A stretch of 36,373 bases of DNA from a plasmid, in the NCBI RefSeq assembly GCF_054482525.1, contig NZ_JBTHVG010000006.1; one strand, given 5' to 3'. This document shows positions 1 through 3,000 of this stretch, one piece after another (position 1 is the stretch's first letter; every line of letters starts with the position of its first letter). The position numbers were made by a program.

Positions 1-3000
1 TAAAATGAAATGCTCATCTGTTTTTACTTCAACCACTAATCATGTTTTCACATTCGAACGAGTAACGCTTTGCACTATTATCCTTATGCATAAGGATACT
101 GGACAACAGTATGTTGTCATATTTACTGATAACAATAAAATTCGTGACTATAAAGCCGGAATTGTTCCTCAGTTTGGCGAACTTAAGCAGAGTGATGTTG
201 ATTTAGTCCTTTTCTACAGGGACGAATATGAAAAATATTTTGATTCATTAAAAGATGGCGATGAATGCTTGAGTTTTAAAGATTTTATTGAGTGTCTTTG
301 TTAAGCATTATGAATGCAGGGGCATCCCTGCATTTTCTGGAAATTTCAATATTGATTCTGAAATTGTCTATTAACATCAATGCAAGGGAAATTCATGAAA
401 ACGTTAAAACAAGCCGCAATGCAGTTTGCATCTGATCTGCGTAATAATCGCTGTTTTAAAGCTGCTTATAATGATGCTCTGTTAGAGCTTGATCGGGAAG
501 ATTTAAACGCCATTGTACAATGCACATTTCTTTTTGAGCCAAAACGAACATTAGCCGAACTTGATAAATTAATTAAAAAGATAGAAGTAGAAGAAGATTA
601 TGAGTTTTGTGTATCCCTTGATAAAGGTAAAGGATTACACGAAGTCAGAACATTTAAAAGTGAGCGTGAGGCGTTGGATGCTTATCGCATTTTGACTCTT
701 TACGGATACACAGTAACTATAGAAAAGAAGGAGGGTAATGACTGACTATTCAAGGTGTGATCAGGTTGTTCCACCAACCTGATCACGTTATCGACAATCA
801 AAACTGAATGAGGTTTTTAAATGTCAACGCGGCAGATCGTACAGCTTGCTGATTCCCTTGTCAAAGGCTGGGAAACCAGAATTCCGGCAATGAAATTTAG
901 CGAATGGGATCAATTCCGGTGGTGGTTAAACTACTTGCAAGGGTATGAAATGTTTTAAATAAAAAAAGGGGCTTTCTGCCCCTTTGTATTTTTTGACAAA
1001 AATGCCATGTGTAACTATAATTAGTTGCATATCTATAGGGGATGGATTTATGGGGAAAACAGATAAGCTACTGGCAAAGTTTTTAAACAGTAAAAAAACG
1101 TTTGAATGGGATGAACTGGTCGTTTTGTTTTCCTCTTTGGGATATGTCAAAAAGGAAATGCAGGGGTCAAGAGTGCGGTTTTTCAATGCTGAAATCAATC
1201 ACACCATATTAATGCATCGTCCACATCCGGAAAGTTATATCAAAGGTGGTACGCTGAAAGCAATTAAACAGAATCTGAAAGAGGCTGGATTATTATGAAA
1301 CATTTAAAATATAAAGGATATTTAGGCACGGTTGAACCCGATTTTGAAAATAATGTCCTGTATGGAAAACTGGCGTTTATTCGGGACCTGGTAACTTATG
1401 AGGCTTCTACATTAGCTGAACTGGAACAGGAGTTTAAAACATCTGTTGATCTGTATTTACAGTCTTGTGTGGAGGATGGAAAGGAACCTGATACCCCGTT
1501 TAAAGGCGTATTTAACGTCAGGCTTGATCCAGAACTGCATCGTCGGGTAGCAGAAATGGCGATGGAAGAAGATTTATCGTTGAATGCCTTTGTTAATAAG
1601 GCTCTGGAAAAAGAAGTCAGCAATCATCGCGCAGGGGCTTAATTGCCCTTGTTTTTATGCCCTGTAAGGGCATGGGAGGCGCTTTGCGCCGGAAGCCCCG
1701 CAGCGCAGCGAGGACTTAAAAAGCGTTACGGCTTCAGCCGTAACAATTCCCAGCCCTGCCAGGCCTGTTTTTTCTTTCACAAATCTTTCAGCTATACGTT
1801 TGCCTGATGGTCGAAGACGAAAGAATCTTTCAGCAACGAAATCTGGACATATGCAGCGACGATTTTATAGCCAGGCACAGTGCCACATATGGTACAATCA
1901 ATGCAGGATAGACAATCCGATGTCAAATGTTAACATTTGAATCAGATTGTCCAAAAACGATGTTTTTGCCTGTGCCTGCCGCAGGCTCTGTTGGGGTGAC
2001 TTATGAAGATGATAGCGTTCAGGCTAAGTGATGATGAGTTAAAATTTGCAGAACATAACGCTATTTTAAGTGGATTTACCAGTATCAATGCTTTTGCTAA
2101 GCATAACGTGCTTAATATTGAAACCAAGCCTGTTAACATCCCAGTTAATAATGAACCAGCAAAGCTGGTATCAGTGCGTCTTTACCCTCATGAAATAGAA
2201 CTTGTTAAACGTAATGCTGCTCTTCACGGCATGAGCATGAGCAGAGAAATTGCTATTCGTGTGCGTCAGTCTTTGTTAAAGAGTGAAGTCTGTCTTTACC
2301 CTGATGAAGTTAAGGAACTTAAAAAACTATCAACTGCTGTAGATCGTGTTGGTCGCAACATTCATTTTATCATAAAAGGTGAAAGATTCTGTACGGTTAA
2401 CGATCCAGATTTCAGAAAAGACGTTATTGAAGTGATTGAACTGTGTAAGCAAATTGATTCAAAACTTGAAACGTTAACCAAGAGTGTTGTTAACAGATTT
2501 GGGTGATTTATGGGTGTGTATGTAGAACAGGAATACCGTATTAAACGCGCTAAAGGGACTGGGCGTGATCCGAAATCTCCTAAGTTATCGGGAAGACATA
2601 TACATGCCAGTAAATCGGCTTTTAATCATAAAGTCAGACATGGTGCGGACAAGAAAGCATATACCTGGACACCTACAAAAGAAGTCACTTTTAAAATCAC
2701 TGGCTCAGGTAAAACAGCCGCAGGCATCAAAAATGGTATTGATTACATTACCCGTAATGGTGAACTTGAGGCTTACTGTTATGATGGAAAAGGTTCAGAG
2801 CAAACAGGGAAAGGAGAAGACTTTAATAGGGAGTTTACTTCAACTTTATCTAAAGGAAATGATTACTCCAGGACATATCGTGGAGAAAACATCGATCATG
2901 TGAAAAACATGGTCTTTTCACCACCACCAGAAGCTGGAGTAAGCAGGGAAGACGCTCTGAAAGCTACGGTAGAATTTCTTAAAGAGACTTATCCAAACCA

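Follow-up and report, generated by a model that had tools for sequence, protein, structure and literature searches.

The hicAB toxin–antitoxin cassette of an IncX4 mcr-1 plasmid, its candidate operator and its variable slot

The stretch of DNA analysed here (the window, 36,373 nt) is a complete IncX4 mcr-1 plasmid. The region around its hicAB genes comprises a small open reading frame (ORF45) followed by a terminator, the overlapping genes hicA and hicB behind a consensus promoter, and a putative origin of transfer (Table 1). The cassette DNA is 100% identical to that of the IncX4 plasmid pKP4823_mcr (NZ_CP082794), the record from which the replicon typing is taken. RefSeq labels the products of the identical DNA as HicA (WP_000520549.1) and HicB (WP_000681613.1), and the IncX4 plasmid of PMC11537010 is listed with the same HicB accession. 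The cassette is matched by 1031 plasmid records, annotated HicA/HicB, of which 358 reach at least 99%. A preliminary description had called the locus a hicAB toxin–antitoxin (TA) module, and its standing as a type II pair is borne out by Pfam, by the labels that RefSeq gives to the same DNA and by fold matches to HicA and HicB proteins of known structure. Rfam gave no match in or near the hicAB locus at the gathering threshold, and none in the 420-bp repeats at E <= 1.

Table 1. Features of the hicAB locus and its surroundings (window coordinates)
Feature	Coordinates	Strand	Details
Perfect palindrome/hairpin	757..786	.	12-bp stem, GTGATCAGGTTG-N6-CAACCTGATCAC; upstream of ORF45
ORF45	821..958	+	45 aa, W-rich C-terminus; GAGG 7 nt 5' of ATG
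Intrinsic terminator	965..994	+	hairpin 965-985, 8 bp with 5 GC pairs, then GTATTTTTT
hicAB promoter	993..1021	+	perfect sigma-70 consensus: TTGACA 993-998, 17-nt spacer, TATAAT 1016-1021
Candidate HicB operator	1010..1029	.	imperfect palindrome, 20 bp, TGTAACTA-TAAT-TAGTTGCA; arm cores AACTA/TAGTT
hicA	1050..1298	+	82 aa; HicA dsRBD-like fold, 19-aa N-terminal extension
hicB	1295..1642	+	115 aa; ATGA coupling to hicA
Terminator-like hairpin	1631..1659	+	over hicB stop codon, then TTTTT; -14.1 kcal/mol, z -2.5
Putative oriT core	1899..1992	-	RP4-type nic motif TATCCTG|C 1903-1910, abutting composite inverted repeat 1911-1951

The first palindrome and ORF45 belong to the conserved plasmid backbone. 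The arms of this palindrome are 100% complementary (-20 kcal/mol, z -4.9), and its stems are invariant in seven of eight related loci around a variable loop, with one mismatch in the right arm of locus L015; it is a backbone element outside hicAB. ORF45 is the final gene of a co-directional run of backbone genes. Equal-length homologues give pN/pS values of 0.09-0.26 at pS of up to 0.6, ignoring pairs with loci L017 and L018, which are invalid because a 4-codon in-frame indel in the L017 ORF45 stayed unaligned. All 24 protein homologues are named 'hypothetical', and NZ_CP082794 carries no CDS annotation at this position. The genes that follow ORF45 differ by plasmid and can be hicAB, relBE, a ParE pair or non-TA genes. 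ORF45 is a real small protein-coding gene of the conserved backbone and lies outside the TA module; the earlier account was right about its presence before hicAB. The terminator proposed after it is likewise real, as the hairpin at 965-985 precedes a T-run and folds significantly better than shuffled sequences (-14.2 kcal/mol, z = -3.4; 0 of 200 shuffles equal). It also scores on the minus strand, because an A-run lies 5' of the hairpin. A comparable hairpin stands immediately 5' of the TTGAC of the -35 in L003 and L005. In the window, the terminator ends the operon that lies upstream and shields the hicAB promoter.

The promoter is the sole 12/12 site in the window (0.01 expected from shuffles), in agreement with the perfect TTGACA-17-TATAAT first read there. 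Its overlap with the terminator amounts to 2 nt and is literally correct, because the final two T's of the T-run double as the opening TT of the -35. The perfect consensus promoter of an IncX4 plasmid is already in print in a 2024 paper and has been employed as a strong promoter (PMC11537010). Both the -10 and the point at which transcription is expected to begin lie within the 20-bp palindrome. In a phylogenetic footprint of six loci with divergent flanks, chromosomal Photorhabdus copies included, 12 of the 16 arm positions show no variation, compared with 1/11, 0/8 and 0/18 positions in the flanks, and the arms remain 7-8/8 complementary in all six. BpsHicB of Burkholderia pseudomallei, likewise a HicB with a ribbon-helix-helix (RHH), has one palindromic binding site, which overlaps its own -10 (PMC11594946), and the same arrangement is proposed here: judged by its position and conservation, the palindrome is likely the HicB operator.

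The start of hicA, for which the preliminary description gave no coordinate, lies at 1050. The longer ORF that opens with TTG at 984 begins upstream of the promoter and is not credible as hicA. The protein matches HicA_toxin (PF07927) along the whole profile (positions 1-58 of 58), with a score of 45.5 bits where the curated cutoff is 27; no HicA model of NCBIfam matched, and a single-sequence search of the PDB gave no match. The AF2 model (pLDDT 95.6) shows a dsRBD-like alpha-beta-beta-beta-alpha order (H20-29, E32-36, E41-46, E51-56, H66-79), and its best Foldseek matches are BpsHicA (6G26_E/F) and TTHA1913 (1WHZ), with prob 1.0 and TM (target) of 0.63-0.73. The canonical GSH is replaced by a motif GS-R41 ... 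H56-R-P-H59-P, in which Gly39-Ser40 and the PHP His59 are retained. Arg41 takes the place that the catalytic His holds where beta2 begins, and aligns with BpsHicA residue 24 in a profile alignment. Among 149 representatives of the subfamily, position 41 is Arg in 125, Ala, Gly or Ser in 20 and His in one, and this sole member with His41 is without His56. His56 is near-invariant; it is carried by an insertion of two residues where beta3 ends and is predicted from the model to lie cross-strand from position 41. The catalytic His is essential in every HicA tested (BpsHicA His24, gonococcal His24, EcHicA His23). It is a conserved functional residue and not part of the Pfam family definition, and the homology to HicA stands; with Arg41 in its place, a His-dependent RNase mechanism is not assured for this subfamily, and can be relied on less than the name of the family suggests.

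The 4-bp ATGA overlap of hicA and hicB, noted earlier, is seen at 1295-1298. HicB matches PF05534 over residues 54-104 (71 bits versus a cutoff of 21), and this domain is present in nearly all of its 257 homologues. A profile search of the PDB found no solved HicB at sequence level, and a single-sequence search gave only a marginal match to a CopG RHH protein (9KKD, E 0.05); with no useful sequence match, a fold comparison was needed. HicB has an N-terminal partial RNase-H-like fold of the HicA-binding type and, towards its C-terminus, two helices (79-91 and 96-114) that come after the FNVRL strand segment, in keeping with an RHH. Profile matches to Antitox_RHH, RHH_10 and RelB-like families are weak. 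The separate lines of evidence for the RHH are each weak and mutually consistent. The C-terminus had been singled out for carrying an RHH instead of an HTH; the RHH is real, but it is no peculiarity, as RHH-type HicBs form a standard class (Gerdes class 4, YpHicB3, BpsHicB and StpHicB; PMC11594946). No terminator-like site is found on the plus strand between 1050 and 1630, and transcription of hicAB probably ends at the hairpin that spans the stop codon of hicB.

The locus can be assigned with high confidence to the presumably autoregulated hicAB type II TA cassettes of IncX4 plasmids, within the 'hicA^O^B' subfamily of Lin et al. 2025 (PMC11878559) and Gerdes class 4; its ORFs overlap and an intrinsic terminator is absent within the operon, as that subfamily is defined. 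It shares plasmid group, gene order, overlapping ORFs and the lack of an internal terminator with the 'hicA^O^B' loci of the IncX4 plasmids pJIE143 and p14EC007a and is in effect the same element, no difference being established; the near-invariance of IncX4 hicAB suggests that the genes tested on those plasmids are the same as those of the window. On p14EC007a, HicA is toxic and HicB neutralising, so that the toxicity/neutralisation check proposed for this locus is already published for an IncX4 plasmid, with the predicted result (PMC11878559). The p14EC007a genes also overlap without an internal terminator and have similar hicA and hicB mRNA levels; hicA mRNA of the IncX4 type is not much above that of chromosomal purA, whereas the IncI2 type has an approximately 10-fold excess (PMC11878559). 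The IncI2 'hicA^T^B' system of pHNSHP45 is plasmid-borne in matching backbone surroundings, with ORF45 about 0.9 kb upstream in L004, but its ORFs are separate, and an internal intrinsic terminator raises the toxin:antitoxin ratio (PMC11878559). It encodes a HicA of 60 aa and a HicB of 145 aa. The reported protein identity is <26%, and the system has a strong effect on plasmid competition, compared with a slight one for the IncX4 type (PMC11878559).

The HicB of Haemophilus influenzae (Q9LA69) is 62% identical to HicB here over the part aligned by BLASTP, which makes up 94% of the query, and is also short (~115 aa), although its locus is chromosomal. H. influenzae HicAB is the founding hic locus, and its HicB is of the PF05534 family. 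B. pseudomallei HicAB (PDB 6G26, 4C26, 6G1N) is the best structural match for both proteins and has an RHH-type HicB, yet identity is only ~24% for HicA and ~10% for HicB, and the catalytic His24 of BpsHicA contrasts with Arg41, the two-residue insertion with His56 and the 19-aa N-terminal extension of the plasmid protein. In BpsHicAB, His24 lies buried where HicA meets HicB. E. coli K-12 HicAB has the gene order, the toxin fold and the logic of autorepression in common with the IncX4 cassette. The cassette is thus real but ordinary, its annotation, its toxicity and its consensus promoter all having been published before. Not found in the literature searched were the conserved 20-bp palindrome over the hicAB -10, the presence in HicA of Arg41 where the catalytic His is canonical and of a near-invariant His56 that is predicted to face it, ORF45 as a real unannotated backbone gene outside the TA, and the location of the cassette in a variable slot adjoining a putative oriT.

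A working model of the cassette can be proposed from these features. The start of a single transcript would lie ~7 nt downstream of the consensus -10, near 1027-1029, and its end at the hairpin that covers the stop codon of hicB, near 1655. HicA would halt growth, presumably as an mRNA interferase that acts independently of ribosomes, and HicB would be made from the same mRNA through coupled translation at the ATGA. The N-terminal partial RNase-H-like domain of HicB would bind HicA, while an RHH dimer or tetramer of HicB on TGTAACTA-N4-TAGTTGCA would repress the very strong promoter, which would be kept repressed because the palindrome covers both the -10 and the transcription start.

The cassette occupies a variable slot between the ORF45 terminator and the putative oriT, and sister plasmids hold other TAs in this slot, or none: in each case after the same ORF45, L005 has relBE, L017 a DUF6290-ParE pair and L013-L016 no TA. 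The most fitting view of the cassette is that of a selfish and exchangeable addiction element, whose measured input to IncX4 maintenance and competition is small. The putative oriT is context and lies outside the TA. It is located ~95 bp upstream of taxA, with taxA/DDP1 and a MobP1 relaxase downstream, and a second, inverted copy is present at 29794-29887, the identity of the two starting 5 nt past the nic motif. As stand-alone evidence the nic motif fails, since YATCCTGY has 8 matches versus 4.1 expected; the placement of the motif and the duplication alone carry weight. Where nic lies and which way transfer runs are both put forward by analogy.

If the minus strand were transferred from this oriT, hicB and hicA would enter the recipient first, and the consensus promoter would fire once the complementary strand is made; the cassette could then act in establishment, in competition with elements already resident, or in defence or anti-defence, in place of vertical stability. 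Such a role in early entry is possible but doubtful. It draws on the minus-strand RP4-type nic motif beside a large inverted repeat and upstream of taxA and the MobP1 relaxase, on the duplication of motif and repeat in inverted orientation with identity beginning just past nic, and on the orientation of all genes from the replication region through hicB towards the oriT, so that the T-strand would be their template. TA genes are moreover enriched in leading regions in the same orientation (PMC11541004), and Lin et al. tied plasmid hicAB to horizontal competition (PMC11878559). However, nic site and direction are assigned by analogy, the motif is not significant by itself, the other oriT copy would lead with another region, the competition effect is weak for the 'hicA^O^B' subfamily (PMC11878559), and PADLOC matched no defence-system model to HicA, HicB or ORF45.

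The preliminary description favoured post-segregational stability, which is unsupported. In classical post-segregational killing (PSK), a stable HicA would outlive a labile HicB and kill plasmid-free segregants, making vertical stability the main function. That is unlikely here, even though the type II TA is carried by a plasmid, its toxicity and neutralisation both being demonstrated, and although curing of an IncX4 plasmid via res inactivation yielded plasmid-free colonies only with HicB and RelB supplied in trans (PMC11537010). The curing result gives a hint of some addiction, yet relBE, which is not visible in the window at the hicAB locus, confounds it. A maintenance role of pJIE143 hicAB was discarded by Bustamante & Iredell 2019, as cited in a 2024 review (PMC11594946), and the same hicAB could be deleted directly (PMC11878559). 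The advantage of wild-type p14EC007a over its deletion mutant is small, at just 3:1 at generation 80, and HicB of the IncI2 type, a different subfamily, is stable for 12 h in lysate, unlike the labile antitoxin that PSK requires (PMC11878559). A three-gene unit with ORF45 as a regulator or chaperone of hicAB, suggested by its high conservation directly upstream on the same strand, is effectively refuted by the survey of contexts and most improbable, since a strong terminator and a separate promoter part it from hicA, since it also occurs with relBE, with a ParE pair, without a TA or 0.9 kb from an unrelated hicAB, and since Salmonella and Photorhabdus contigs carry hicAB without it.

The exchangeable slot beside the putative oriT accords with a published proposal that TAs of leading regions serve horizontal spread and not vertical stability. 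A more speculative reading, possible but less likely than not, is that HicA represents a widespread N-extended subfamily of ~82 aa with a rearranged active site, in which His56 may replace the lost His and chemistry or target could differ, and that hicAB would be the first gene pair to reach the recipient from the adjoining oriT. The precise operator candidate could provide a handle on hicAB autoregulation, and a HicA that is reported to be toxic yet is without the supposedly essential RNase residue matters for how HicA toxins act.

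The 82-aa and 115-aa proteins had been described from the sequence as a hicAB toxin–antitoxin (TA) pair, an identity that is borne out by Pfam, by annotated DNA of 100% identity and by fold. The smaller protein matches HicA_toxin across the whole profile (45.5 bits, cutoff 27), and the larger one matches HicB, PF05534 (71 bits, cutoff 21), with weak ribbon–helix–helix (RHH) profile matches at residues 64-110 that agree with the RHH-type HicB proposed earlier. When 700-1800 was compared by megablast with 72,556 plasmid records, 1031 matched (358 at ≥99% identity), nearly all of them conjugative plasmids of Enterobacteriaceae. 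The top match, 100% identical, is the IncX4 mcr-1 plasmid pKP4823_mcr, whose annotation names the two gene products HicA family toxin (WP_000520549.1) and HicB family antitoxin (WP_000681613.1); small hypothetical genes flank the pair on one side and taxA/taxC on the other. The window corresponds to the complete circular pKP4823_mcr plus a 1680-bp IS91-family insertion. The single HicA sequence had no sequence match in the PDB; a profile of 61 aligned subfamily members matched Burkholderia pseudomallei HicA (BpsHicA; E 0.004). The AF2 model of HicA is confident (pLDDT 95.6), and in structure it comes closest to BpsHicA (6G26) and Thermus thermophilus TTHA1913 (1WHZ), both with probability 1.0. 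Neither the HicB sequence nor a 32-member HicB profile matched a solved HicB structure, and Foldseek with the two-domain HicB monomer gave weak matches. The original HicB of Haemophilus influenzae shares 62% identity with this HicB over the aligned region. Because homology and fold agree, HicA and HicB are bona fide members of their families.

Four papers (PMC11878559, PMC11594946, PMC11537010 and PMC10865869) between them already cover the assignment as a TA pair, the toxicity assay, the overlapping genes, the RHH domain and the consensus promoter. Lin et al. (NAR 2025, PMC11878559) split plasmid hicAB into two subfamilies; in the IncX4 type, 'hicA^O^B', the ORFs overlap and an internal terminator is absent. 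They also report the toxicity and neutralisation assay that the preliminary description had suggested: in E. coli K-12, the HicA of IncX4 p14EC007a proved toxic and was completely neutralised by HicB. Systems with a C-terminal RHH HicB form class 4, one of two classical classes (Gerdes, mBio 2024, PMC10865869), and IncX4 plasmids are unusually rich in hicAB (review PMC11594946). A curing-vector paper, whose table lists the same HicB accession, describes the IncX4 hicA promoter as 'strikingly' having a perfect -35 TTGACA N17 -10 TATAAT and employs it as a strong promoter (PMC11537010). Post-segregational stability, the only functional claim made for the module, finds no support in published experiments; wild-type plasmid reached only 3:1 over a deletion mutant at 80 generations (PMC11878559). 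Thus, the earlier interpretation is right in identity, while the function is wrong or at least unsupported.

All elements of the preliminary description are present in 600-2000 and the ORF list. The first two -35 bases come from the terminator T-run, which confirms the overlap of promoter and terminator, and the 4-bp overlap of hicA and hicB is an ATGA common to both ORFs. The terminator hairpin folds with -14.2 kcal/mol (z = -3.4). The 12/12 promoter match is the only one in the 36-kb window, compared with 0.01 expected from dinucleotide shuffles.

Features of the hicAB region of the plasmid
Feature	Position	Strand	Remarks
Upstream palindrome	757-786		GTGATCAGGTTG-N6-CAACCTGATCAC; perfect 12-bp stem; ~35 nt 5' of ORF45
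ORF45 (45 aa)	821-958	+	GAGG Shine-Dalgarno 7 nt 5' of ATG
Variable slot	959-2002		ORF45 terminator to NikA-like/taxA gene; compared with related loci L005 and L013-L017
Terminator hairpin	965-985		GC-rich, A-run and T-run on either side; scored as terminator on both strands
hicAB promoter	993-1021	+	TTGACA 993-998, 17-nt spacer, TATAAT 1016-1021
Palindrome	1010-1029		Spans -10 and expected start site
hicA	1050-1298	+	82 aa
hicB	1295-1642	+	115 aa
Hairpin and T-run	1631-1659	+	Across hicB stop codon

The promoters of six hicAB loci were aligned: the window plasmid, an IncI2 plasmid (L002), a Klebsiella IncF plasmid (L003), a Salmonella contig (L007, its HicA 72% identical) and two chromosomal Photorhabdus loci (L010, L011). 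Only the -35 (TTGAC) and the palindrome TGTAACTA-N4-TAGTTACA are conserved; the arms of the palindrome are invariant at 12/16 positions, versus 1/11, 0/8 and 0/18 in adjoining segments, and are complementary at 7-8 of 8 positions in every locus. Judged from this alignment, the palindrome is the signature expected of an RHH operator and a candidate HicB site, at which we infer binding. In parallel, B. pseudomallei HicB binds a single palindrome overlapping its own -10. In hicA^O^B systems, hicA mRNA is about as abundant as hicB mRNA and shows no such excess over the chromosomal purA reference as IncI2-type hicA mRNA, which is ~10-fold above it (PMC11878559). Repression of the consensus promoter by HicB would account for this modest mRNA level.

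In studied HicAs, a histidine at the start of β2 is essential for activity (PMC12297915; PMC11594946). Profile alignment places Arg41 of the window HicA at this residue, His24 of BpsHicA. Among 149 subfamily representatives, position 41 is Arg in 125, Ala, Gly or Ser in 20 and His in one, while His56 and His59 occur in 143 and 147, respectively. Compared with BpsHicA, two extra residues, His56-Arg57, are inserted directly before the conserved PHP. The HicA model assigns β2 to 41-46 and β3 to 51-56, and by these strand boundaries, rather than by coordinates, residue 56 would pair with 41 if the strands form an antiparallel hairpin with a four-residue turn. The sole representative with His41 (P0237) has Ala at 56. 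Arg41, the near-invariant His56 predicted opposite it and this His41/Ala56 homologue together suggest that the catalytic histidine may have moved to the neighbouring strand, a relocation of which no mention was found in the HicA/HicAB literature searched.

ORF45 is followed by hicAB in the window, relBE in L005, a DUF6290-ParE pair in L017 and unrelated minus-strand, non-TA genes in L013-L016; L004 carries a different hicAB 0.9 kb beyond it. As these neighbours differ, the DNA from the ORF45 terminator to the transfer genes forms a variable slot, frequently occupied by TA cassettes. ORF45 as a TA component was rejected: its partners vary among loci, and hicAB is also found without it. Its homologues on IncX4, IncI2, IncF and IncU plasmids and metagenomic plasmid contigs show pN/pS of 0.09-0.26 with pS up to 0.6 (equal-length homologues only), and one lineage has an in-frame four-codon insertion. 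By these comparisons, ORF45 is a genuine gene under purifying selection. It is unannotated in the RefSeq record and has no family assignment, and its 24 protein homologues are all unnamed. Within it, a promoter-like TTGACA-17-TACGAT (10/12; 864-836, minus strand) points back across the start codon and is inseparable from coding constraint. The stems of the palindrome upstream of ORF45 are unchanged in seven of eight related loci, with one mismatch in L015; the loop varies, and no compensatory stem changes were seen in these eight. This pattern points to either a hairpin or a site that a protein recognises by its sequence.

On the minus strand, ~95 bp upstream of taxA, TATCCTG|C (TATCCTGC) corresponds to the RP4-type nic consensus and directly adjoins a composite inverted repeat (1911-1951). 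The 94 bp at 1899-1992 recur as an inverted copy at 29794-29887, and the two are identical from 5 nt beyond the putative nick; the plasmid may thus have oriT in two copies. R6K, an IncX plasmid, has two functional oriTs. Nicking at the putative site would transfer the minus strand towards hicB, so that hicAB would be first to enter the recipient. Every gene on the hicAB side would then have the T-strand as template, and the same arrangement, with enrichment of TA genes, is reported for leading regions (PMC11541004); however, the nic motif by itself is not significant (8 found versus 4.1 expected) and the second copy would lead with another region, which leaves early entry of hicAB rather doubtful.

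Other elements were observed on the plasmid. Between hicB and the putative oriT, 1650-1745 is GC-rich with nested hairpins, and some IncI2 plasmid records each contain two sequences that match ~95 bp of it at 88-89% identity. The insertion relative to pKP4823_mcr (30038-31717) encodes a 399-aa IS91-family transposase (Y2_Tnp and Zn_Tnp_IS91) and is separated by ~150 bp from the second putative oriT. An Rfam match to AgrB antisense RNA (23329-23417, minus strand; 58.7 bits, gathering 40) lies ~300 nt upstream of where co-ordinate mapping places the sister plasmid's CDS for dqlB, a DinQ-like type I toxin; a type I TA is probably also present on the plasmid. A GC-rich direct repeat of ~420 bp (33874-34298 and 35953-36373; ~98.7% identical) lies upstream of two oriT-proximal groups of small genes. 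No Rfam family matches this repeat, whose minus strand forms a strong fold as ssDNA (z -3.7); an ssi/Frpo-like element is one possibility. Tandem repeats of 22-bp period beside the replication initiator gene (33125-33256) are presumably iterons of the origin.

Since the hicAB cassette is already known, it is in itself of low interest. Specialist attention is merited by the candidate operator, the Arg41/His56 variant of HicA, the unannotated ORF45 with its palindrome and the variable slot adjacent to the putative oriT.
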